A stretch of 64,000 nt of DNA from Tubulanus polymorphus (lineage: Eukaryota; Animalia; Nemertea). The stretch is taken from NCBI RefSeq assembly GCF_964204645.1, contig NC_134026.1:9075950-9139949 (forward strand). Reading direction: 5' to 3'. A program made the position numbers and the translations under genes. Positions 17,199 to 61,140 of the stretch are shown here, in pieces (position 1 is the stretch's first letter; every line of letters starts with the position of its first letter). Below the pieces are notes generated by a model. That model saw nothing but the letters and a program-made list of their open reading frames with translations, was not told where the DNA came from and ran no database searches.

Positions 17199-17600
17199 AC
17201 GAAGTGGCTACTCGTACGGACCCGTACGAATAATTCCGTAGGCTATTCGTACGCACCCGTCGGATAACTCTGGAATTATGATTACGGGAAGGGATAGGGT
17301 TAGGGTAAGGTGAGGCTATATCTAGTTAAAACATTCGACCGACTGTCAGCGAGCTCGGTGGTCTAGTGGTACGATGCTGCGCTAGTAATTTGCTGGCCCG
17401 GGTTCGAGTCTCGCTCTATCCGCTATTTTTCTCTAACTCTATTCTCCACACTTTCCTTGAATTTTTCTAAGTCGTGCACCTCTGTACGCATGCGCGGCGT
17501 TAATCGGCCAATCAGCGACAGTTATTAGCGTACAGATCCTAGTCCCGTACGAATAGTCTCCAGAGTAATCCGTATGGGTCCGTACGAGTAGCCACAGCGT
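17199..17600. mobile_element. MITE carrying a tRNA-like Pol III promoter (A box TGGTCTAGTGG, B box GGTTCGAGTC at ~17360-17410)
   Basis: TIRs acgaagtggctactcgtacggacc / ggtcccgtacgagtagccacagcgt in TA-rich flanks; related inverted copy at ~45280-45670. Confidence 0.6.
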
Positions 17601-19292: not shown

Positions 19293-19788
19293 ATTTAGAT
19301 CGATTTTCGGAAACAGGTTAAACTGCAGCTATGCAGCATGTCCCGTGAGAGGACCTGGGGCCTGTGACGGGACAAGGATGTCCCGTCACAGGTCCCGATG
19401 GAAAATGAAAACTTTGCATTTCGTAGACGAAATGTCGGAAGAAACTGCACTCGATTGGTTACTATATACACTCAAAATAATGTTAAGAACATGTTAATAA
19501 TCGAAATTTGTTCGTAATTTTATTATTTCAGATCAATGATATCATCAAATCGAAACATTAAATGTAATAATGAAGATCGGATCAAGAGAAGACAGAACCA
19601 CAGCTATCGAAATTTCAATTTTTAGTGTATAGACTGACTCATACTATCGAAAATAAAGTGAATGTATCTTGACAATTTTGGTGCCAATGGTGTTAGTAAC
19701 CGTATGTTAAGCGTTACACTGCAAACAAAAGTAAAAGTGGAGGGGGCAACTTAATGGCCCTAGATCACTCTCGAGAGAGAATTCAAAG

Positions 19789-20540
19789 TGAGGGACCCGA
19801 TTCAACACACTGTCCCGTGAGAAGACCCGATTCAACTTACTGTCCCGTGAGAGGACCCGATTTCAAATACTGTCCCGTGAGAGGACCCGATTCAACACAC
19901 TGTCCCGTGAGAGGGCCCGATTTTAAATACTGTCCCGTGGGAGGACTCGATTCAACACACTGTCCCGTGAGAGGACCCGATTCAACACACTGTCCCGTGA
20001 GAGGGCCCGATTTTAAATACTGTCCCGTGGGAGGACTCGATTCAACACACTGTCCCGTGAGAGGACCTGATTCAACACACTGTCCCGTGAGAGGACCCGA
20101 TTTCAAATAATGTCCCGTGAGAGGGCCCGATTCAACACACTGTCCCGCGAAGGAACCCGATTTTAAATACTGTCCCGCGAGAGGGCCCGATTCAACACAC
20201 TGTCCCGTGAGAGGACCCGGTTTCAAATAATGTCCCGCGAGAGGGCCCGTATCAACACACTGTCCCGTGAGAGGACCCGATTTTAAATACTGTCCCGTGA
20301 GAAGACCCGAATCAACTTGCTGTCCCGTGAGAGGGCCCGGTTTCAAATAATGTCCCGTGAGAGGGCCCGATTCAACACACTGTCCCGTGAGAGGACCCGA
20401 TTTCTAATACTGTCCCGTGAGAGGACCCGAATCAACTTGCTGTCCCATGAGAGGACCCGGTTTCAAATAATGTCCCGTGAGAGGACCCGATTCAACACAC
20501 TGTCCCGTGAGAGGACCCGATTCAACACACTGTCCCGTGA
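19789..20540 (+). repeat. Left subterminal tandem array, ~25 x 30 bp (tgtcccgtgagaggacccgattcaacacac)
   Basis: Exact 30-bp periodicity with a few variant types. Confidence 0.97.
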
Positions 20541-20972
20541 GCCAAAAGTTGTTGAATGAGTATCTTTATGACAAATAGTGAATATTGGTGGAATATTTCT
20601 CTATTTTGATTTGTAGGTGTCCGGCGAACGACAGGACCAAGACGATGACGTGGGCGATGATATTTCAAACGTGAGTCAAAAGTTGTTGAATAAATATCTT
20701 TATGACAAATAGTGAATATTGGTGGAATATTTCTCTATTTTGATTTATAGGTATCCGGCGAACGACAGGACCAAGACGACGACGTGGACGATGATATTTC
20801 AAACGTGAGTCAAAAGTTGTTGAACGAAAAGTTGTTGAATAAATATCTTTATGACAAATAGTGAATATTGTTGGAATATTTCTCTATTTTGATTTATAGG
20901 TGTCCGGCGAACGACAGGACCAAGACGATGACGTGGGCGATGATATTTCAAACGTGAGCCAAAAGTTGTTGC
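20535..20972 (+). repeat. Triplicated exon-intron unit containing a 54-nt acidic exon (VSGERQDQDDDVGDDISN)
   Basis: Three near-identical ag|gtgtccggcgaacgacaggacc...tcaaac|gtgag units. Confidence 0.85.
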
Positions 20973-22824
20973 ATGAAAACTTCAATGTACAATATGAAAA
21001 AATGATCAAATATTGAAAAAAAATATATTTTACTGTATGAAATTACAGGTTTCCGCAGAAGACGGCTGGCTTAGATTGTATGACGACGTCTTTGATATAC
21101 AAAATCTCACCGAGGCAGAACAGATTAAAATCAGTATGAAGTTATCACTCAAAGAGTCACATCTCCGTCAGAGTGCAGAGAAAAGGCTTCAATCTCTAGT
21201 TTCCGAATCCAATCTGAATATTGTGTCGGTCGCGGATGACGGAAGCTGCTTTTTTTGCAGCTGTTGTCGAACAATTGAGGCGAGAAAACGTTGACATAAC
21301 AGCACATGAGCTACGATTAATGGCTGTTTCATACCTTTCTGAAAATAGATATTGCGCTGTAAGTAAATTAAAAACCCATTGATATATCAAGACAGACTAC
21401 AATAAATATTATATACACATATTATGGTTTGCTTCGCTGGATGGGGCTGATAAGGCCGACTTTCTGGAGTCTCATCTGACATGGCCATTATATCTTAATA
21501 AAATGAGACAAAGAACCACCTGGGCCGATGCTTTAGTTGTCCGTGCCACAGCTGACTGTTAAGGGAGACCAATGGTACTATATACCAGTTCAGAGCAGTC
21601 AAACATCAATATGATAGATCCTGTCGAATGTAAAAATGCTGAACCCATCTTACTAGGGCATATTCAAGATATTCACTACGTTGCCCTAGTAAAAAGGAGC
21701 TATATCCCAAGACGACGCGTGTCAGTCGAGAGTGTCAGAGGGTAACCTTGCGGCCTAACCCACGGAAGACGGTAAGTTGATAGTATATGCCATCCCTTCT
21801 GACTATTTGGCAAAAATAATACAGCCATCAGAAGCCTTGTTCATGTCAGCTAAGGGTTAATTAATTGAATTTCATAGCGTCAAAGTGACAGTTACCTCTG
21901 AGAACCGCAGAAAAAAAGAAGACGGGTTATCGATAAAGGAATCTACTGCGTTTGCAAGAAACCAGATGATGGAAGGTAAAGCTTAATTATATCATATAAG
22001 GTCAGGCTGTTGTTTTAAGATTCAGTCGTCATTGTCGAAAAAATCTTTTACCTTCACTTTCACTTTCACTTACCTTCACTTTCAAAATTTTCTGCATTTG
22101 CATTTTAGGAAGTATTTGCAATGCGATGAATGTAGTGGGTGGTTCCATCCGAAATGTATTGGTCTGAACGAAGATACTGTGGAGAAAATTGACTATAGAT
22201 GCGAAACGTGTTTTCAGGTAAGCGATGAACTAAAAAAATATTTTGATCAAATAAGCTATGCCTATATCCTTGCTATGCTATCCTTTTATACAATGTGATT
22301 GCATTCTTTTTATATAGGTACCTAAACGATTCATTAAGAGTCAGGTATGGAATCCGATACATAATGCATACGAAACTCTTGCCATTTTCCACTAGAAAGC
22401 AATGAATCAAATGTTTTTCTTTTCGCAGCTTGGCGCGGTTGAATATCACGTTTCTCGTATAATTAATGCCGAGATAAAAGACAAGAGGTAAATATTGTAC
22501 CTTAGTAGAAATCTCGCCAGTTTGTTGAATTTTTCAAACTTTTGTTGATAATATACAATCTTTGGTTTCAGAAGGCCGGAATTCAGGAGACATTTGGACT
22601 TGATTAACAAAGACCATGAAAGAGCCGAAAAAGAACTGAAAGGATATGGCTATGGGCTTTTAACTGATGAGGTAAGCATTGATAACAGAAAATATGAAAT
22701 GCGTACAAATAAATGAGCTTTCTTTCGATCATCGTAATATTCAATATTTTAAAGGGCCATGCATATCTCTATAGTGTAATGAAATCATACGTCAGCCCTA
22801 CCTTTGCGGACAAATCGTAAGTAT

Positions 22825-24094
22825 TGATCCGCAGCAAGATTCCGTAGTAACTAAAAAATGTTTGTAATGATGGTTTTGTTTGCGTTGGTGGTTTCTTTAT
22901 GGGTATCAGACAGCAAACGATGTGTGCAAGTTGTTGTTTGATGCTTTGATCTACCAGCGCTGACAATAAATCAGCCAGGGGTAAAAATAATTCTTCCTCG
23001 GTTCTTGTGCGTCGATATCTGGCAAACATTCAGAATTATTTTTAAAAACTTAAGGATAGACGGAACTGTAATTGGTTGGGTCGGAACGATGAGGTGCTTT
23101 GATAGTGTGGTTTGTGCAGGGATCTCGCTGTTACTTCTTGATACTCCCGACTACTTTCTATAAAAGGAAGAACCGGAAGTATAGGGAGACATGGTTGTTT
23201 TGCTTTATCCTGTAGTATTATAGAGTTAGTTAAATTATAAATGAAAATTGGTATAATAAGTATAGAATGATTTTAGATTTGATAATTAATTACATTGTAT
23301 TTCTGAATCAAAAGTTTACTATTGTTGATTGGAAAAAGAAACGATGAGTTTGTTCCATAATCTAGGTGAAAACTAAGTTTTGAAAATATATCTAAATTAA
23401 GTATCCTGGATGTTAATTAAGGACAAGACCTTTATAATCGCTTAAGTTTTATGGAAGTTTAATTGTGGCAAATATCAATACTAGCTCTCTAAGGTTTCTG
23501 TTGGTGTACATGTCTGTTGGTAACTCGTAGAGAATAGCTGCTCTCTCAACGATGATGAGTAGGGAGTGAGTAAATCAAAGCGCGTTATGACAGGAGGGTT
23601 GGAAAGAAAAGTTACTTTGGCAAATCAGTTTCTCAAATAATTTTAGATTAGCGAATCATTAAGGCTAATTCTACATGTCCAAAACCGTCATGACAGCTAG
23701 GTTGCTGCTCCTTGCCAAAAGTCGAACGGGAGAGTCGGCATTCTAGGAATGTCGATCTTTTCTATAAAAAGAGGCCCGCAGTCTTGAGAAAGCAGAGTTA
23801 CCAGGGACGCTCGTTATAGATACTTGAGGTTTGGGTGGAAATACCAGAATTAAGACGGGTTACCAACAGTAGTGTACAATAGGAATTTGGAGTTAGGAAT
23901 TGGACTGTGTACTATCTGGAGTTATTACTATCATCAAGGTAAATAAAATCTATATTATTATTATTATATTCAATCGGAATTTCGGCATTTTAGTTTAATT
24001 AGTTGGGTTTGTGCACGGACACGTTCTCTCGCCAGGGACCGATCTTTACGTTTTTTATTCAACGATTAAGGAGAGGATTGTGACCGGTGTATCA
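22825..24094 (+). repeat. 5' LTR (TATA-like TATAAAA 23763-23769; AATAAA 23942-23947)
   Basis: Direct repeat of 29204-30473 with no difference spotted by eye; TG...CA ends. Confidence 0.95.
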
Positions 24095-24095
24095 T

Positions 24096-24113
24096 TGGTG
24101 CCGAAACCCGGGA
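24096..24113 (+). promoter_or_regulatory. Primer binding site complementary to the tRNA-Phe 3' end
   Basis: TGGTGCCGAAACCCGGGA 1 nt after the LTR is the reverse complement of the metazoan tRNA-Phe(GAA) 3' 18 nt including CCA. Confidence 0.9.
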
Positions 24114-24266
24114 AATCAATAATCTTCGGTTTACGATAAACTTTTTACATTAATTGTTTAGTTTTGTTCAAATGGTACATATCTTCGTATGCTTTCACTG
24201 TGGTGCGAGGAACGCATTCTCTAAGAAGCGCCGCACTACAACCAACTCAACATACGAAAAGAAATT

Positions 24267-24629
24267 GTGGGGGTCGAACCCACCTAATACCAAACCGTTT
24301 GAATTCCGGTCGAGTTTCGGGAACCATTGTGGGATTCGAACCCACTGCCAACTCCGGTCGTCCCTGTTGAGACATTGCGGGATCCGAACCCGCGAAGTGC
24401 ACGACCATTTGAGATTCCGGAGGAACTTCGAGAGCCGTCGTGGGATTCGAACCCACCACTGCACGCTCATGTGTAATACCGGAGGAGTGTCGGGGACCTC
24501 TGTGGGATTCTAACCCACTCGCCATGCAGGTCGACACCGATGGGGCTGCACTACAGCCATTGAGGGGTTCGAACCCTCCACCTTGTGAATTGCCAAAACC
24601 GTCCAGCCAGGATGGGGAATCGAACCTAC
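24267..24629. repeat. Array of seven 17-nt hairpins antisense to tRNA T-arms/B-boxes, separated by divergent 31-46 nt spacers
   Basis: Hairpins start at 24267, 24329, 24377, 24440, 24502, 24562, 24613; consensus GTGGG-attcgaa-CCCAC. Confidence 0.85.
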
Positions 24630-24696: not shown

Positions 24697-25755
24697 ATGT
24701 CGACTGGAGGGGAGACGACGTACGGTGCGGGTGGCTCACGGGAACGATCCGCTGTAAGCAACGACACTGTTCTGCAGGCCCTTTCTGGCCTTCGCGAACA
24801 GGTGGACACAGCCACGGCGTTCATGAATTTCTCTTTGCTCCCTAAATTTACGGGACGAGACGACCAGTGCGTCACTGATTGGTTCAAAGGATTTGACCGT
24901 TTGGCCGATCTAAGGGGTTGGAACGATGACGCTAAAAAGAAACAGTTGTATTGGTTTTTGGCTGGCCCAGCCCTAGTTCTATTCAATGACCTCCGCATTG
25001 ATCAGGGAACCGATGCGGCCGGTGGCAAAGTTGTCACTCCCTGGGAAAATATTGTCCGTGCGTTTTGCGCGCAATTTAGCCCCGCCTCGTGGGCTTTGGT
25101 CAAGGAGTCGGCTTTGACGACGATGCGACAGGGGGAGACACAACCGGTCGATAGGTTTGCGGAAGAGATTGATCGTGTGGCCTCGAGTTTGAAATTTTCG
25201 GACCACCAGAAAAAGATGTTACTAATTAACAACTCACGCCCTGACATCTCTGTCTACCTGTTGTCACAGCGTCCGACGACATTTAGGGATGCATGGGAGG
25301 CAGCCAGAATGGCGGAGCATATCGAACAACGTAAAGCTCTGTCGTCTCCCAAGGTATCGCAAATTGGGACCGAACCAAATAAAGCGATGGGTGACGTTAT
25401 GGCTGAATTACGGGACATGTTCCGCCAAATTATGGACATCCAGAAGTCTACCCGTACTCAGCGGAATGATAGAGCCACATTTTATAGCGAAAGCCGCCCG
25501 TTACAAAGGTCACAGGATGGCCAGGTGGTGTGCTTTCAATGTCACGCCCCTGGTCATTACGCCAGGAATTGCCCGACGTGGCGTTACGACCAACAAAGGT
25601 CACCAAACCGGGACGCATTTCAGCGTGATAATCGCCGTCCCCAAAATTCTGGTAGGGGTCAGTTTCGGTCACAGAATCTTGGGCGTGATTCCCAGCGGGT
25701 TAATCGAACATTTGGTCAGGGAAACGACCGGAGACCTCATCCTATGGACCGATAA
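24697..25755 (+). CDS. gag: Gag (retrotransposon capsid-like domain plus CCHC zinc knuckle), 352 aa
   Basis: LPKFTG...WFKGFDRLADLRGW...L.GPA capsid-like motif; MRQGETQPVDRF (MHR-like); CFQCHAPGHYARNC. Confidence 0.92.
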   Translation: MSTGGETTYGAGGSRERSAVSNDTVLQALSGLREQVDTATAFMNFSLLPKFTGRDDQCVTDWFKGFDRLADLRGWNDDAKKKQLYWFLAGPALVLFNDLRIDQGTDAAGGKVVTPWENIVRAFCAQFSPASWALVKESALTTMRQGETQPVDRFAEEIDRVASSLKFSDHQKKMLLINNSRPDISVYLLSQRPTTFRDAWEAARMAEHIEQRKALSSPKVSQIGTEPNKAMGDVMAELRDMFRQIMDIQKSTRTQRNDRATFYSESRPLQRSQDGQVVCFQCHAPGHYARNCPTWRYDQQRSPNRDAFQRDNRRPQNSGRGQFRSQNLGRDSQRVNRTFGQGNDRRPHPMDR

Positions 25756-25780
25756 GGGTGGGGTCACGCAATGAATGGTC
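25719..25780 (+). other. Programmed -1 ribosomal frameshift signal (G GGA AAC plus stem-loop/pseudoknot)
   Basis: Slippery heptamer in gag phase; 7-nt spacer; 11-bp stem 25733-25743/25755-25765; -1 frame open into ORF2. Confidence 0.85.
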
Positions 25781-25888
25781 AACTGAGCCCTCGCCGGACT
25801 CGTTAATAAGGAGTGATTATTGGTGGGATGACACATATTCGGGTTATCATAGTTATGATGATGACAGTCCGGTAATTGATGATTATAT

Positions 25889-25926
<38 letters not shown>

Positions 25927-27740
25927 GTGATGATGATGGTTATTATTTAGAGGACGATAGGGATGATATATTTGACATGTCATTTGATCAGGGCGACATG
26001 CTAGCTGACTCATTTTCTCTTTATTTTGAACCTGAGGGGAACTGTAATGCAGATTACTTAGATGACACTGAACCTTTACATTTAGATAAGTTTATTGATT
26101 ATCACACTCCTTCATGGGGTGCCGATGACGTTTATGACATTCAAGATCGTAACTTTGGGGATAGCTGGAGGGACAATTCTCAGTTGTCGTTAGATGGAAA
26201 TTTTTATATGGATCAGGGATCCAATTTTGAGGACATCTGGAGGGACAATTCCCAGTTGTCGGCTACTTACGAGCATATAAAAAGACACAGGAGGGTTACG
26301 TTTAGCGATCCGGTTAAATTGCAGGAGGTACGTGCTGATATGGCGTGCTCGGGTGACAATATTAGTATTGATAGGTCACACCCTAGAGGGGTTAATGGTC
26401 CGACGGATTCGGCAGAAGATGACCTTTTTAGAGATAGGAAGTCTCATTTAGATTGTCACGAAGGCGCTTTTGATCAGTATAGGTACCCAGCAACCTCCGA
26501 ATCAGCAATACAATGTGATCTTGTGTCATCAGATTCAAGTAGTAGTAATAATTCACGATCGGAATGTCTTAATGATCAGAGTAATATGGAAACTATTTTG
26601 TCAAAGATATCTAGTCAGGAGTCAATGTCGGAGAATTTGTGTCACTCGTTTGAAAGAGGACAGCACTTTCCTGTCACCTCAAATGCCAGCAGTTTTCACC
26701 ATCCAGTTGGGGATGGAATGTCCCATGAACAGGACAGAGGTCAAGTTGTCCTCACGTCTAAACCGAATATGCCAATCAACGAAAAGGTTGGGATAGGAGA
26801 TTCGAACTCCGATTGTCAACCAACTGTTCACTGTCAGGAACAATTTCCACCTGTTACGATGACTTTAGGTAACACGTCAACCAACGACATAGGGTCCTTT
26901 TCCAGTCAGAACAACACTATTGGACAGGAGGCTTATTCCCCGTCAATCATGGCAACTGCCGCCAACCGAGTGACTGGTAGTCATTCAGGGACACCGTTAA
27001 ACATTTTGATTGATACGGGTGCCGATATTTCTGTAGCGTCAAACAATTACTTCATCAATCATCCTCAGATATCGAATGGCCCTTTGCAGGAGGGACAATT
27101 TCAGTCCGCCCGTGGGGTAGATGGTACTAAGTTTTATTTAAAAGGTGTTATTTCCGTAGATTTTGTATTAGGAAATTTGGACGTGTCACATTCTATGTAC
27201 GTGGTGGATGGAGTCACCTCGGACTTCATTCTCGGAGTTGATTTCCTGGAACGAAACCAGGCAGTTATCGATTATGCTAAAAAGGCTCTCTTGTTGCCAG
27301 GCGCCGACATAATTTACTTTAGTAATGATGTCATCTTGGGGAAATCTTCGTCGGTTAAAGTCACGCGTATGACTGTTATTCCCCCTTCATGCGATGTCAC
27401 CGTAGACCGTAAGTGGTTAATTGACAAGTCTCAGTCATCGATTGCAGCCTTTGAGCCTGCACATGATTTGAGAATGCGTGATCTCATGAGCGCAAGGTCA
27501 GTTGTTAGCGTCATGCCATCAAGGCATAGGCTTCGAGTCACGAACCCTACGTCACGACACGTCACCCTCTTTGAAGATACGTGTCGTAGTGATTCGTGGA
27601 CAGATGGGTGGTCACTTGACCGATCACTCAAAACAGAGGCGAAGTCAGGACAGCTTCCTCGGCCACCGGAGGTGTCTATCACACATGTGGAAGACCCTCA
27701 GACGTCAGACGAAATTTGTAAGTATAATCGAATTATTTAG
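25722..27740 (+). CDS. ORF2 (-1 frame): ~400-aa acidic low-complexity region, retropepsin aspartic protease, post-protease beta-rich domain; no RT/RNase H/IN
   Basis: LIDTGADISV active site and DFILGVDFL; poly-Asp; the track's GTG start at 25758 is preceded by an open frame back to the slippery site. Confidence 0.85.
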
Positions 27741-29190
27741 AGTTTGGATCAAGATGCATACGTCCTATTGAAAATTATGAATTGTATACGGTAAGCGTCT
27801 CTTCAGTAGGTTATCGAAATATAATTACATAAGTATTGTGAAACTGAAGTATATATAACGCATTGTTGCCAATGAGTTAACTCCTGATCTGGGTTTAATC
27901 TAATACAGGAGATAAAGACAACTATAAATAAAAGTGAATAATAGCTTGATTGTCGTGATATTGGTTTTTTTTTTTTTGCTGAAATATCACTAGTCTCTAG
28001 GGTTTATTATCTGTAGTCTGAATGGATGTCATTAATTGTCAGTTAGAAAAGAAAGAGTTATGATATGTTTGAATAATCTCTGTATTATTATGATATTAAT
28101 TGTAGGATACCCGTATCGGATGTGTTGGAATGAGACCGCCGAAGATACGATAGCACTAAGATGGAAGAATGCCTTCTGTCAACCGCAATAGATGTTGATG
28201 GGTACCCCCCTGATAGTGACCATATGGAGATGGGGACTTGTTGGGAGGTATCCTGAAACTCTATTCGATGCAACTGATAGTTTGAAAAACCAGCAACTGG
28301 TATGCTCTGGCCGAGATGGGTGATATTAATTCACCGATTCGTCAATTAACGAGGAAAAAGGAACAACTATATACAGCCTACAACAACGATCTAGGGCGTT
28401 GCCGTTTCAACGGGATGGAATTATGCTCGATGATTAGTCATGCGATTCTGGCCATTGTTAGTGGTGTTTGTCACTCTCGAAGACCTGTTATATACTCTCA
28501 AACTTAAGTGATGAAGGGTGGACAAAGACACCTGGCCAATGCGATACGAAATATGAAGAAAAGTGATAATTTCCGTAGACATTTTAGCGGAGTAAAGCCG
28601 AGTGTGTTCAAGATGGCTCCCGTGTAGTTACATTAACATTCGATGGAATGTTGTTCGCTCAAGCCGTAAGATGCGAATACATTACTGTTCCGTTTCTATA
28701 TTAACTGTGGAGAAAAGACTCCGATATAGTAACCGTAGTACTATAGCGTCTATGAATAGCGAGCAAGTATTCAGCTGAACATACATGTGTTTTGCCGTAC
28801 TATCAACGTAGCAGTACGCGCTTCGAGGAACTGCGGTGGATGACGTCATTCGTCCGTCCATGACGTACCTTGTTGTGTCTGGTAGCTGTTGCGTCACTTC
28901 GCGGTAAATTCTAAACTCAAACTGTGAACTGTTTTGTGCTTAACTTTCGAGTGTTTAGTGTGCGGGGACAGCGGTCTCGAATGAACTTTTTTCCGATTGG
29001 GTATCCGGAACTTTAAATGCGGTTTTATGATATACTATATCATGAACTTTAATATGCGTTGTAGTGTCAAACTCGTTACTCGTTATAATGAATTGTTTAC
29101 TAATGTTCTTTTTCAGGATTTGTTCTAGAGGTATCAGCGGGATATTCACGAGTTGGTTTAAATTCAAAATTTCGGGACGAAATTTAAACT

Positions 29191-29203
29191 GGATAGGGAG
29201 TGA
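29191..29203 (+). promoter_or_regulatory. Polypurine tract
   Basis: ggatagggagtga immediately before the 3' LTR. Confidence 0.7.
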
Positions 29204-30473
29204 TGATCCGCAGCAAGATTCCGTAGTAACTAAAAAATGTTTGTAATGATGGTTTTGTTTGCGTTGGTGGTTTCTTTATGGGTATCAGACAGCAAACGAT
29301 GTGTGCAAGTTGTTGTTTGATGCTTTGATCTACCAGCGCTGACAATAAATCAGCCAGGGGTAAAAATAATTCTTCCTCGGTTCTTGTGCGTCGATATCTG
29401 GCAAACATTCAGAATTATTTTTAAAAACTTAAGGATAGACGGAACTGTAATTGGTTGGGTCGGAACGATGAGGTGCTTTGATAGTGTGGTTTGTGCAGGG
29501 ATCTCGCTGTTACTTCTTGATACTCCCGACTACTTTCTATAAAAGGAAGAACCGGAAGTATAGGGAGACATGGTTGTTTTGCTTTATCCTGTAGTATTAT
29601 AGAGTTAGTTAAATTATAAATGAAAATTGGTATAATAAGTATAGAATGATTTTAGATTTGATAATTAATTACATTGTATTTCTGAATCAAAAGTTTACTA
29701 TTGTTGATTGGAAAAAGAAACGATGAGTTTGTTCCATAATCTAGGTGAAAACTAAGTTTTGAAAATATATCTAAATTAAGTATCCTGGATGTTAATTAAG
29801 GACAAGACCTTTATAATCGCTTAAGTTTTATGGAAGTTTAATTGTGGCAAATATCAATACTAGCTCTCTAAGGTTTCTGTTGGTGTACATGTCTGTTGGT
29901 AACTCGTAGAGAATAGCTGCTCTCTCAACGATGATGAGTAGGGAGTGAGTAAATCAAAGCGCGTTATGACAGGAGGGTTGGAAAGAAAAGTTACTTTGGC
30001 AAATCAGTTTCTCAAATAATTTTAGATTAGCGAATCATTAAGGCTAATTCTACATGTCCAAAACCGTCATGACAGCTAGGTTGCTGCTCCTTGCCAAAAG
30101 TCGAACGGGAGAGTCGGCATTCTAGGAATGTCGATCTTTTCTATAAAAAGAGGCCCGCAGTCTTGAGAAAGCAGAGTTACCAGGGACGCTCGTTATAGAT
30201 ACTTGAGGTTTGGGTGGAAATACCAGAATTAAGACGGGTTACCAACAGTAGTGTACAATAGGAATTTGGAGTTAGGAATTGGACTGTGTACTATCTGGAG
30301 TTATTACTATCATCAAGGTAAATAAAATCTATATTATTATTATTATATTCAATCGGAATTTCGGCATTTTAGTTTAATTAGTTGGGTTTGTGCACGGACA
30401 CGTTCTCTCGCCAGGGACCGATCTTTACGTTTTTTATTCAACGATTAAGGAGAGGATTGTGACCGGTGTATCA
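29204..30473 (+). repeat. 3' LTR
   Basis: Same length and sequence as the 5' LTR; followed by TSD GTAT. Confidence 0.95.
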
Positions 30474-31810
30474 GTATATACATGAATCAGACGTGAAGTT
30501 TTTTTACTATATTTCGAAATGATAATCAATTCATTTCAATTACAGGAAACCATATTCAACTCGCTACATGACCCTCCGACAACATCATTCTAAAATGCTG
30601 AATTCAGTTTTTAAAGAAGGAAAGACGTAAGTTCATTCTCATCTTCTATTGCTAATTTCTTAAAAGAATTTCATCCATGTTATATTCATTGTATTAAAAT
30701 ATTTTTCAGGTCAGCAGTAACGTATGTTAATGACGTTTTGCTTAAAGAGGCCATTTGTTTATTGGTGTCAACCTACCGAAATATCACATACAACGAGGCT
30801 GATATTCTTGGAAGAAGAACAGAGGCCAAAAAACTAAAAGATGTACAACGACTAATGTCCAAATACTTCTTGCCAGATTATTGAAGAGTGAAGCAGTTTT
30901 CGATTCTTAAATGGGAGCTGTTGTAGATTGGTTATCCCGTAATGATTGTATTCTATGGAATAAGTTTTCTTGTTGCGATGAATTTTTGGATTGCTAGAGA
31001 TGGTCTTTGCTGAATTTTGGTAATGGTTTTAATTGGAACCAGATTGTGACATGGATGTTTGAATTGTTGAAATGCTGTCCAGTCTTCTAATAGATGTGTG
31101 TAGTATATAGCCTATAGAAGTTCTTTGCAATGATGTTTCAGAAGTTATGAATGATGGTTGAAAGATTCCAGCCGGGGCCGAGATGGTATTGTAAATTGTT
31201 GTTAATTAGTGGATCGTTTTATCTGCCTGGTTTGTTGTCGATGTCTTATGCTGTGTACTACTTCGTGTTAAATATTATTTTTGTATTGTGTCTTAACAGA
31301 CAAGGGCGTTTTCTGTCATCCAATATGAAATGATAATTTTTGGTTCAAATTATGATACATCTATCCGGAATTGGGAAATATTGCTGAAGAGTAAAAGGGG
31401 AAATATGAAAGAATTGATGATAACCTTTTTTACCGTGTAAAGTAATAATTAATAATTAAATGATAAGTAATAATTTAGTTTGGCGACAAAGATTTAGTAA
31501 TCTAAAATGCTAAATTGATTTCGAATTCCAACGTATGTTGTTTATGTTCAAATATGAATAATATAGTCTTCGAATGTAATATGGTTTACAGATTTTGATA
31601 AATAAATAACTGAACATAATTTCACATATATACGATTTGTTTTATGTTTTAAGGGGACATAGCCAATTTGGCTTTTAGTACGTACATCCAGCCATCATTG
31701 TACGCATATTGTTGAAATAATAATTTCTTGTTGTAATTTTTATATATGGCAAAAATGCATTATCATTATGAGCATGGGACTCAACATTGACAAAGTGGAC
31801 AATTTCATTA

Positions 31811-32800
31811 GTCCTCTCACGGGACAGTGTGTTGAACCGAGTCCTCTCACGTGACATTCTTTGAAACCAGGTCCTCTCACGGAACAGTAAGTTGATTCGG
31901 GTCCTCTCACGGGACAGTGTGTTGAATCGGGTCCTCTCACGGGACAGTATGTTGAATCGGGTCCTCTCACGGGACATTATTTAAAAGCGGGCCCTCTCAC
32001 GGGACAGTGTGTTGAATCGGGTCCTCTCACGGGACAGAGTGTTGAATCGGGCCCTCTCACGTGACATTATTTGAAACCAGGTCCTCTCACGGGACAGTGT
32101 GTTGAACCGAGTCCTCTCACGTGACATTCTTTGAAACCAGGTCCTCTCACGGGACAGTAAGTTGATTCGGGTCCTCTCACGGGACAGTGTGTTGAATCGG
32201 GTCCTCTCACGGGACAGTATGTTGAATCGGGTCCTCTCACGGGACAGTATTTAAAATAGGGTCCACTTACGGGACAGTGTGTTGAATCGGGTCCTCTCAC
32301 GGGACAGTGTGTTGAACCGGGTCCTCTCACGGGACAGTATTTAAAATCGGGTTCCTTCGCGGGACAGTATTTAAAATAGGGCCCTCTCACGGGACAGTGT
32401 GTTGAATCGGGTCCTCTCACGGGACAGTACTTAAAATCGGGTTCCTTCGCGGGACAGTATTTAAAATAGGGTCCTCTCACGGGACAGTGTGTTGAATCGG
32501 GTCCTCTCACGGACAGTATTTAAAATCGGGTTCCTTCGCGGGACAGTATTTAAAATAGGGTCCTCTCACGGGACAGTGTGTTGAATCGGGTCCTCTCACG
32601 GGACAGTATTTAAAATCGGGTTCCTTCGCGGGACAGTATTAAAAATAGGGTCGTCTAACGGGACAGTATTCAAAATCGGGTCCTCTCACGGAACAGTGTG
32701 TTTAATCGGGTCCTCTCACGGGACAGTATTTAAAATCGGGTCCTCTCACGGGACATTGTGTTGAATCGGGACCTCTCACGGGACGGTAACTTGAATCGCG
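31811..32800 (-). repeat. Right subterminal tandem array, ~33 x 30 bp, inverted relative to 19789-20540
   Basis: gtcctctcacgggacagtgtgttgaatcgg is the reverse complement of the left unit, with shared variant types. Confidence 0.97.
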
Positions 32801-33305
32801 GGTTCCGTTGTAAAATCCTGCGTGAAAAACGTGCATTCATATCCCCTATTGTCCCCCTGGCCCTGCAGTAAATTAGAATTTTTCGGTAGGCCCTTATGTA
32901 TTTATAAATGAAATCAAAATGGAAAATGTAATAATTACAATCGATAGTTGAATTTATTTATTCATAATCGTTATAGGCAGAATACATAAGAATATATAAG
33001 GGACTCGAAACCGCTAGCATTGGAATCGACGTTTCATGTAAGAATTCTACATTTGTCCCGTGAGAGGACCCATGTTTCGTCACAGGCCCGGGTCCTCTCA
33101 CGGGACGCTGCAGTTAAACTCATATGGATTTTCACTTGCAACTCTTGGAGGAATCCCTTTTCACGCAGAATGTGATGACGTAGTAGGGAATTTCCGCATA
33201 AAACTCCTACACTTAGCTCACGTTTCGGTGACGTAGTTCACGCGGCTCGTAATTCGGGTACATGTGTAGCCGAACTAGAGGTAGAGATAGAGATAGAGTG
33301 GTAAA

Positions 33306-58540: not shown

Positions 58541-59249
58541 GATGAAAAATATTCATTCGAATAATTTCCATGGTCTAGTTGGGATATATCTCTAAACTAT
58601 TGATATGATCCAAGTGACCAGTGATCGGCCTTTCTCTCACTTAGGTGTGGTGACTGGTGTGGTGACCAGCCAGGTGTGGAGTGACTGGTGAAAACTATTC
58701 TGTTTGTTGACTGATGGGGGCTGCAGGCTGAATCACTCGGTATATCTGTATATCTAAGAACGATATTAAACTCAGTCGACAGGTTTTTTAACAGTCTAAT
58801 AATACACTCCAAACATGATATTAAATTTTGATACAAACCGTTCTTACTGTAACTGACCGATTAATCCCCATCAACCTGTGGAATAATAGTTCACTACAAA
58901 ATATTGAATAATAATAGTTACGTCGATGGAGACTTGCCAATTCACAGATGTCTCATCTGTGAAAAAGTAAAAAACTGTTTGACTGGATCATTTAAATCCA
59001 TAACATGTATATCGATGTTGCGTCGATGAGAGTTGTTAGACGATATTGTGTGAGGTAAGTGTTAATTATGATATTGGGATGAGAGTTAGTGAATGATATT
59101 CTGGTACCGTAAGTGTTAATAAATGATGTTGATGATATAAATACATCATCATGCGTTCTGTTAATCTGTATCCTTCTGAATCCTGTGTTAAAGGTAGGAT
59201 GTATAGCATCTCTATTATAAGTTTTACAAGATAGGTTCATACCTATGGT

Positions 59250-61140
59250 GTTAAGTGTAGTTAACCTGTTGGTTGTATAGTCAACCTGTTAGTGGTGTAA
59301 TTCACCTGTTAGTGGTGTAGTTAATCTGTTAGTTGTGTAGTTCACCTGTTAGTTGTGTAGTTAACATGTTAGTTGTGTAGTTAACCTGTTAGTTGTGTAG
59401 TCAACCTGTAAGTGGTGTAGTTAATCTGTTAGTTGTGTAGTTCACCTGTTAATTGTGTAATTCACCTGTTAGTTGTGTAGTTCACCTGTTAAATGATTAA
59501 TCAACCTGTTGGTTAAATAGTTCTGTTAGTTGTGTAGTTCACCTGTTAGTTGTGTAGTTCACCTGTTAGTTGTGTGATTCACCTGTTAGTTGTGTAATTC
59601 ACCTGTTAGTTGTGTAGTTCACCTGTTAGTTGTGTAATTCACCTGTAAGTTGTGTAGTTCACCTGTTAGTTGTGTAGTTCACCTGCACGTGTAAGTTGTG
59701 TAGTTCACCTGTTAGTTGTGTAGTTCACATGTTAGTGGTGTAGTTAACCTGTTAGTTGTGTAATTCACCTGTTAGTGGTGTAGTTAATCTGTTAGTTGTG
59801 TAGTTCACCTGTTAGTTGTGTAGTTAACCTGTTAGTTGTGTAGTTAACCTGTTAGTAGTGTAATTCACCTGTTAGTTGTGTAGTTCACCTGTTAAATGAT
59901 TAATCAACCTGTTGGTTAAATAGTTCTGTTAGTTGTGTAGTTCACCTGTTAGTTGTGTAGTTCACCTGTGAGTTGTATAATTCACCTGTTAAGTGTATAA
60001 TCAACCTGTTGGTTGTATAGTTCTGTTAGTTGTGTAGTTCACCTGTTAGTTGTATAATTCACCCGTTAAGTGTATAATCAACCTGTTGGTTGTATAGTTC
60101 TGTTAGTTGTGTCGTTAACCTGTTAGTTGTGTAATTCACCTGTTAGTTGTGTAGGTCACCTGTTAAATGATTAATCAACCTGTTGGTTAAATAGTTCTGT
60201 TAGTTGTGTAGTTCACCTGTTAGTTGTGTAGTTCACCTGTTAGTTGTGTAATTCACCTGTTAGATGGGTAGTTAACCTGTTAGTTGTGTAGTTCACCTGT
60301 TAGTTGTGTAATTCACCTGTAAGTTGTGTAGTTCACCTGTAAGTTGTGTAGTTCACCTGTTAGTTGTGTATTTCACCTGTTAGTTGTGTAGTTCACCTGT
60401 TAGTTGTGTAGTTCACCTGTTAGTTGTATAATTCATCTGTTAAGTGTATAATCAACCTGCTGGTTGTATAGTTCTGTTAGTCGTGTAGTTCACCTGTTAG
60501 TTGTATAATTCACCCGTTAAGTGTATAATCAACCTGTTGGTTGTATAGTTCTGTTAGTTGTGTCGTTAACCTGTTAGTTGTGTAATTCACCTGTTAGTTG
60601 TGTAGTTCACCTGTTAGTTGTGTAGTTCACCTGTTAGTTGTGTAATTCACCTGTTAGTTGTGTAGTTCACCTGTTAGTTGTGTAGTTCACCTGTTAGTTA
60701 TGTGATTCACCTGTTAGTTGTGTAGTTCACCTGTTAGTTGTGTAGTTCACCTGTTAGTTGTGTCGTTAACCTGTTAGTTGTGTAATTCACCTGTTAGTTG
60801 TGTAGTTCACCTGTTAGTTGAGTAGTTCACCTGTTAGTTGTGTAGTTTACCTGTTAGTTGTGTAGTTCACCTGTTAAGTGTATAATCAACCTGTTGGTTG
60901 TATAGTTCTGTTAGTTGCGTAGTGAATCTGTTAGTTTTATAGTACACCTGTTATTCATATAGTCAACCTGTTTGATGTATAGTTAACCTGTCAGTTGTAT
61001 TGTTAACCTGTTCGTTGTATAGTTAACCTGTTAGTTGTATAGTCAACCTGTTCGATGTATAGTTAACCTGCTAGTTGTATATTTAGCTTGTTAGTTGTAT
61101 AGTTAACCTGTTTTTTATAAAGTAACTGTTAGTTGTACAG
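59250..61140. repeat. 20-bp satellite (gttagttgtgtagttcacct)n, ~1.9 kb
   Basis: Clear 20-bp periodicity with recurring higher-order variants. Confidence 0.97.

Follow-up and report, generated by a model that had tools for sequence, protein, structure and literature searches.

Non-autonomous LTR elements with a tRNA- or 5S-derived piece are known from Helenus, Ajax and Cassandra (TRIMp3); Helenus is 311-1263 bp long, codes for no protein and harbours, within its LTR, a tRNA piece that includes boxes A and B, and its animal members have 4-bp target-site duplications (TSDs) and depend on Gypsy helpers (PMC10886601, in part). Arrays of repeated short motifs between the primer-binding site (PBS) and gag are known from the 5' UTRs of gypsy, ZAM, Idefix and gtwin, but they are protein sites on DNA, for Su(Hw) and HP1, and none is described there as being of tRNA origin or as forming a hairpin whose changes are paired (PMC3383448). 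T-arm complementarity is a property of the extended PBS and PAL of Ty1 and Ty3 and of the PAS and dimer hairpin of HIV-1, where palindromes have been proposed to form dimers and Gag/NC binds near the 5' end, although these sites are short, few and matched to the primer tRNA (PMC4974528 and PMC3675109, both in part). Several B-boxes within a few hundred bases and without a tRNA gene occur in the fission-yeast elements IR-L and IR-R, with five B-boxes (PMC7474672, in part), and in the extra-TFIIIC clusters of C. elegans (PMC6950938, in part), which are chromosomal boundaries with shown TFIIIC binding, whereas the array considered here, a putative TFIIIC target, lies in the leader of a retroelement.

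Here we describe an array of antisense T-arm hairpins in the leader of an LTR retrotransposon from Tubulanus polymorphus, analysed within a window of 64,000 nt (the whole stretch of DNA under study). At 7.65 kb and with gag and protease, the element falls outside the short, non-coding class of Helenus (at most about 1.3 kb), and it has T-arms only, six or seven of them, which stand outside the LTR, are antisense and have no strict A-box. In contrast to the sites of Ty1/Ty3 and HIV-1, the array strings together in tandem six complete T-arm complements, of a tRNA type other than the primer, each closed as a hairpin. The TR-GAG elements of plants resemble the present element in having LTRs, gag and protease and no reverse transcriptase (RT); we know of no such leader array in them. 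Our literature search, with Repbase, Dfam and subscription papers outside its scope, found no LTR element with tandem antisense T-arms in its leader, and the family may be catalogued in one of those sources.

The element lies on the forward strand between two copies of the TSD GTAT (22821..22824, repeated at 30474-30477). Its 5' LTR (22825..24094, 1270 nt, TG...CA) and 3' LTR (29204..30473) are identical, with 0 mismatches over 1270 nt. One base after the 5' LTR stands an 18-nt PBS (24096..24113), whose full-length match we take to be tRNA-Phe. Its first 12 nt are the complement of a tRNA end labelled Phe_GAA_His_GUG in a supplementary table row (PMC13524379, in part), and by eye human tRNA-His diverges from it at position 9 (table in PMC10359600, in part). 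Downstream of the PBS and 5' of the array, a predicted 9-bp leader stem with one plus-strand G-U pair (24199..24240) is retained in a diverged subfamily. The gag ORF (24697..25755, 352 aa) contains Retrotrans_gag and one CCHC zinc knuckle, and ORF2 in the -1 frame (25704..27740) encodes an acidic low-complexity linker followed by an aspartic protease (about 26970-27245); the Pfam matches in these proteins are PF03732, PF00098 and PF13650. The linker occupies about 380 codons (25758-26900), has a poly-Asp run before the protease and shows length variants in reads. By the slippery heptamer rule, G-GGA-AAC, which stands in the gag frame within the gag/ORF2 overlap, with a stem behind it (25719..25765), is a candidate -1 frameshift signal that would produce Gag-protease; the stem is predicted to have 13 bp and to start 7 nt 3' of the heptamer, and the z-score of the 86-nt fold is only -0.53. 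A non-coding 3' region (27741..29203), covered by reads of several copies, ends in a purine-rich tract (29191-29203), and no open frame of more than 85 codons was found in 27700-29203.

With 7649 nt and two ORFs, the element thus combines TG...CA LTRs and a short TSD with a PBS, a purine tract, a Gag with CCHC and a protease, as expected of an LTR retrotransposon. The RT, RNase H and integrase in gypsy order that mark an autonomous Ty3/gypsy element were not found: a tblastn search with 153 proteins, RT being present in at least one (P0041) and integrase in none, gave no match to these enzymes, and protease was the only match downstream of gag. The best library relative of Gag is 35% identical (P0001, E 4e-39), 649 proteins match it at E up to 0.001, and some of these relatives carry Ty3_capsid. 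Because the query set was without integrase, superfamily and clade are placed by Gag likeness, on which this young LTR retrotransposon, with no RT found, is of Ty3/gypsy type. An earlier note on this DNA had placed the array in an RT-less LTR element, in agreement with the LTRs, PBS and gag identified here and with the lack of an RT match.

Seven units start at 24267, 24329, 24377, 24440, 24502, 24562 and 24613, with spacings of 62, 48, 63, 62, 60 and 51 nt, and on recomputation their coordinates, sequences and spacings were as the earlier note gave them. The T-loop of tRNAs follows the rule TTCRANY. Units 1-6, read on the minus strand, have five Watson-Crick pairs each and a 7-nt loop at most one mismatch from TTCRANY. 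Hairpin 1 (24267..24283) is a T-arm of 5 bp and 7 nt, hairpin 2 (24329..24345) is the same as the metazoan tRNA-Leu/Ser T-arm, and hairpin 4 (24440..24456) has the same sequence as hairpin 2. Hairpin 3 (24377..24393) has a compensatory C-G pair, and its loop letter at 24384 is a minor allele, with T in 191 of 267 reads of the DNA run X5 (see below). Hairpin 5 (24502..24518) has a perfect stem and an A at the C56 position of the B-box, an A also present in the deep X1 contig over 24468-24635 with 0 other letters. Hairpin 6 (24562..24578) has a compensatory A-T pair and is T-arm-like on both strands. The note's count of seven hairpins holds for these six perfect 5-bp/7-nt structures and not for unit 7 (24613..24629, minus strand), which is an intact B-box core with its stem largely gone and no minus-strand fold (2/5 pairs on the minus strand; 3/5, including one G-U, on the plus strand). 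An exact GGTTCGANYCC is present in five of the seven units in this copy and in six in most reads. On the plus strand, where most loops contain UUCGAA or UCGA, three of the six hairpin loops contain a 6-nt palindrome here and four in most reads, a 4-nt palindrome is found in units 1 and 7, and unit 5 has none.

Six hairpins of T-arm type stand in this one leader; 2000 dinucleotide shuffles of it averaged 0.008 and never gave more than 1, and the rest of the window has two. A model built from the seven units (R1) found no further unit in the window, its next match scoring 15 bits vs 28-50 for the units, and none in the LTRs, which likewise lack a T-arm hairpin. Tandem Repeats Finder at score 30 did not report the array, ARAGORN found no tRNA gene there, and neither CCA behind any unit nor a strict A-box on the minus strand of the array was found.

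The array is a decayed tandem repeat of which the hairpins are the best-kept part. Mean pairwise identity among units is 84% in the hairpins, 42% in the 23 nt upstream and 21% in the 8 nt downstream. A plus-strand CCGG motif marks the repeat unit (24306..24482; at 24306, 24354, 24417 and 24479), with CCG exactly 23 nt before hairpins 2-5, and the 87 nt around units 1-2 match those around units 3-4 at 73.6%. From the CCG spacing, the identity of the upstream block and the 87-nt match it follows that the spacers are related and not free, which corrects the earlier claim that they diverge save for CCGG. Within units 1-6, the four stem positions inside the 11-bp B-box do not vary in any of 24 cells, whereas 4 of 36 cells differ at the six outer stem positions, all four changes being paired, with a chance of about 0.0014 in a simple simulation; in the upstream block 23 of 92 cells differ. 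Changes in the loop affect 3 of 12 cells at the free positions 59-60 vs 2 of 30 at fixed positions. The compensatory stem changes that had been claimed do exist, but in one pair only (the second from the base) and in two units, and the case is weaker than stated, since shuffled sequences score at least as high for covariation in 24 of 500 cases. Every one of the 30 stem pairs in units 1-6 is of Watson-Crick type, and the two strands differ little in local stem probability (0.40-0.96 plus, 0.26-0.95 minus); in a fold of the whole leader, hairpins 2 and 4 are mostly open (0.01-0.05). Taken as a whole, the hairpin array is probably under selection.

Copies of the element were followed in reads of the same species. 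These comprise X5, a DNA run with the same species label from a separate study, of which about 12% was read, and the contig sets X1-X3; four runs of one study contain 63-71% of the element's words. In X5, 13,713 reads were mapped, and a separate mapping on the leader placed 1332 at 80% likeness. An empty-site joint (22819->30473) is present in 19 X5 reads and in one contig each of X1 and X2, and the insertion is therefore polymorphic. Depth inside the element, its RT-less 3' part included, is about five times that of the flanks (234 vs 46, in 16 and 4 bins), which gives about five copies per genome and, because the 3' part is raised too, indicates that several copies have the same layout. No helper element was seen in these reads. 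In some copies, 25-32 nt spanning the end of the LTR and the PBS (24085-24116) are duplicated in tandem, with 5-12 X5 reads per joint and contigs in X1-X3.

Because reads map more readily where conserved anchors exist, and because joints can arise when reads cross-map from one unit to another, the counts of variants and joints from these reads lean towards conservation. Among the variants listed (40 of 133), the substitutions in 24267-24461 fall in spacers (14) and loops (3), with 0/17 in stems (P=0.02 for stem depletion; P=0.10 for whole hairpins, not significant), and all three indels listed there are in spacers, while the stem of hairpin 6 shows a three-base insertion at 24574 in 16 of 254 reads. 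The segment 24468-24635 is otherwise nearly invariant in deep contigs, spacers too. With this result for copies and the 84% vs 42% identity among units, the expectation that hairpins are better kept than spacers is borne out. Unit number and spacers differ between copies, and 8 of the 12 joints listed have one side at most 4 nt from a hairpin end. A subfamily represented by 41 X5 reads aligns at the PBS, at 24196-24237 and at one hairpin, with different sequence between (joints 24108->24196 and 24237->24325; the X1 joints are of equal depth, probably from one contig). In the upstream stem, the changes in two read variants produce plus-strand G-U pairs, and a third paired variant breaks a lone pair.

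Searches of other collections gave no relative with its DNA context, and a single species is therefore all in which the array is documented. A Gag search gave no score for any of 1924 candidates of similar length, a protease-region search among longer proteins gave 0 of 922, and 21 pattern matches to P0001 in genome contigs yielded no confirmed case. The PBS pattern had no match in viral contigs, and a PBS with a hairpin at 170-231 nt had none in metagenomes, a result that says little, as such elements are perhaps absent there. Triple T-arm patterns were found at one and two viral loci and at 106 metagenome loci, and a double pattern at 28 viral loci; among these 137 loci there was no protein match to Gag, to protease or to the RT-bearing relative, and no blastn match to the leader. 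In the metagenomes the arrays have a 40-65-nt period, 55 of the 106 loci contain an ARAGORN tRNA, and on 81 of the 106 loci model R1 found generic T-arms only, with a best score of 32 bits. In these phage and metagenome arrays (L001:1497-1630, L003:601-720, L032-L137) the 40-65-nt period is too short for whole tRNAs, 87 of the 547 T-arms at the metagenome loci have CCA 7-12 nt behind, and in some arrays the stems are varied and not exact repeats.

As the earlier note had recognised for tRNA-Leu, units 2 and 4 share a 17-mer that is identical to a T-arm found in human tRNA-Leu (AAG, CAA, CAG) and tRNA-Ser-GCT (PMC10359600, in part) and in fly and worm tRNA-Leu-CAA (PMC4536317, in part). By eye, the flanks of the units do not extend into the acceptor or variable-arm sequence of the Leu/Ser tRNAs compared. 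Within the window, 7 of 14 matches to the core motif lie outside the array, several of them in SINE-like heads with A and B boxes, and the flanks of these heads do not align with the array spacers. The array is likely to have begun as a SINE- or tRNA-derived T-arm that entered the leader antisense, in the polarity of the PBS, and was then amplified in tandem. That it might be a recent SINE insertion absent from other copies was rejected on the grounds that reads cover the array as deeply as gag and, as far as the window allows, its SINE-like repeats match the core only. Dispersed repeats with a T-arm/B-box core stand at 17400, 45373, 50358, 50642, 55508, 55780, 3496 and 44808; they belong to at least three families, two with an A-box-like motif upstream, and are likely tRNA-derived SINEs. 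Together with the PBS, heads of this tRNA type suggest an invertebrate animal as host.

Outside yeast and flies, little has been mapped of the signals by which animal Ty3/gypsy elements are packaged and dimerise. The reading to which we tentatively lean, though we give it somewhat less than an even chance, is that the hairpins would serve the element's genomic RNA as a repeated signal for dimerisation and packaging. Pairing is retained at the outer stem positions beyond the B-box, where a site for TFIIIC alone would not require it, and a hairpin signal on genomic RNA is therefore favoured; that pairing itself is kept points to a single strand, and the RNA that the element must make is the plus strand. 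The array lies between PBS and gag, the usual place for such signals: the packaging and palindromic dimer signals of Ty1/Ty3 lie there (PMC4974528, in part), and the Idefix leader is bound by Gag (PMC5443660, in part). Stems free of listed substitutions in the reads, joints near hairpin ends and a subfamily that retains a hairpin amid other sequence also count in its favour. The G-U pairs of the upstream stem, one in this copy and two in read variants, are all on the plus strand, a weak hint as to which strand is the RNA. Plus-strand hairpin self-duplexes are calculated at -21 to -27 kcal/mol vs -12 to -15 for two closed hairpins (only -14.8 for the self-duplex of unit 5), values without a control and of a kind that any hairpin could give by swapping stems. 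Once the T-arm had been amplified, copies would have gained, lost and swapped units at the hairpins while selection maintained stem pairing; the plus-strand loops, self-complementary UUCGAA in most units, are predicted to bring two genomes together through kissing contacts that extend into longer duplexes, and the hairpins are predicted to be bound by the zinc knuckle of Gag. Such a signal would help an RT-less element to enter particles together with a helper element's enzymes, and the natural variants in stem, loop and unit number offer a ready test of how such an element recruits them. Against this stand the thin covariation, of one pair and two events, and the all-Watson-Crick stems, which leave the hairpins themselves without strand preference. 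Moreover, folding of the whole leader leaves hairpins 2 and 4 mostly open, changes in the loops agree slightly more with the T-loop/B-box rule than with a palindrome, and unit 7 retains its B-box and loses its stem.

These same points keep alive a second reading, unlikely in our estimate but a serious one, in which the array acts as DNA: a cluster of B-boxes would bind TFIIIC without a Pol III gene and form a boundary or insulator that shields the LTR promoter, for which the Su(Hw) array in the gypsy 5' UTR and the B-boxes of fission-yeast IR-L/IR-R are models. We hold it at that level because of the lack of stem strand bias, the open hairpins 2 and 4, the positions of the loop changes and unit 7, a B-box without a stem. 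It also accounts for the exact GGTTCGANYCC in most units, for the invariance of stem positions within the B-box (0/24) beside variation at 59-60, and for a minus strand without strict A-box, and several B-boxes without a tRNA gene are what extra-TFIIIC clusters have. TFIIIC, however, reads double-stranded sequence and shape (PMC11811891, in part), and the outer three stem pairs, for which it has no need, are nevertheless kept and changed in pairs. Unit 5 speaks for the packaging reading and against this one, as it retains a perfect stem without C56, whose mutation cuts yeast TFIIIC binding 370-fold (PMC11811891, in part). The many dispersed B-box-bearing SINE-like heads in the window further show that the motif alone is common.

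Rather unlikely, in our view, is a third reading, in which the leader would be a multivalent tRNA trap: six mirror T-arms on the plus strand would pair, chaperoned by Gag, with the T-arms of host tRNAs, such as tRNA-Leu/Ser, or of their fragments, for primer activation, tRNA loading or as a decoy. The array has the polarity of the PBS, the complementarity of units 2 and 4 to tRNA-Leu/Ser T-arms extends over 17/17 positions, and the geometry is exactly that of a T-arm, most stems stopping at 5 bp; complementarity to real T-arms would itself explain the paired stems. A full duplex with the complement is calculated at -31 to -37 kcal/mol vs about -13 for two closed hairpins. This reading is placed where it is because the match is to Leu/Ser and not to the Phe-type primer; to the tRNA-Phe T-arm, as to any T-loop, only a 7-nt core of the units would fit. 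T-loops are, besides, modified and folded against the D-loop, which counts against pairing, as do flanks that by eye do not extend into the tRNA acceptor or variable arm and the absence of CCA behind the units. Precedents are the Ty1 sites complementary to the T and D arms (PMC4974528, in part) and the PAS of HIV-1, which pairs with the primer T-arm when NC is present; a PAS that lies inside a helix does not anneal unaided (PMC3675109, in part). If true, the trap would load tRNAs into particles, bridge two genomes or soak up silencing tRNA fragments, and an RT-less element would by this means prevail over its helper; as DNA, the array could also serve as a TFIIIC boundary. Binding of either tRNAs or TFIIIC by the units would amount to an undescribed reuse of a tRNA part by a retroelement, and if neither holds, the array is an ordinary leader repeat with a tRNA-derived seed.

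It is doubtful that the array is only a passenger, a SINE- or primer-derived T-arm amplified by template switching, with recombination or repair and quasi-palindrome correction mimicking conservation: the motif is common in the genome (half of its matches in the window lie outside the array), copies vary in unit number and spacers and some have the tandem duplication at the PBS, similar arrays exist at 106 metagenome loci without a retroelement match, and covariation is confined to one pair, but homogenisation should hit spacers too, and neither the paired changes private to single units nor the hairpins kept between unrelated spacers in the diverged subfamily are explained by it. A coding role was rejected, as Pfam gives no match for the 113-codon uORF that spans units 1-5, the unit spacings do not keep to multiples of three and 112 of 170 X5 reads have one extra base at 24301; a known RNA family was likewise rejected, with no Rfam match at gathering (tRNA-Sec at 18.4 bits, E 9.1, threshold 47).

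Other repeats surround the element. Two 30-nt minisatellite arrays in opposite orientation, with a common 60-nt end motif, flank it (19332-20541 and 31811-33112) and are probably two copies of one satellite-bearing repeat. Adjoining the left minisatellite, a unit of 134-149 nt with an exon/intron-like alternation is repeated in tandem three to four times (20536-21030). Further downstream, 59000-61000 shows a strong G-/T-rich strand skew (GC skew 0.32, AT skew -0.38).
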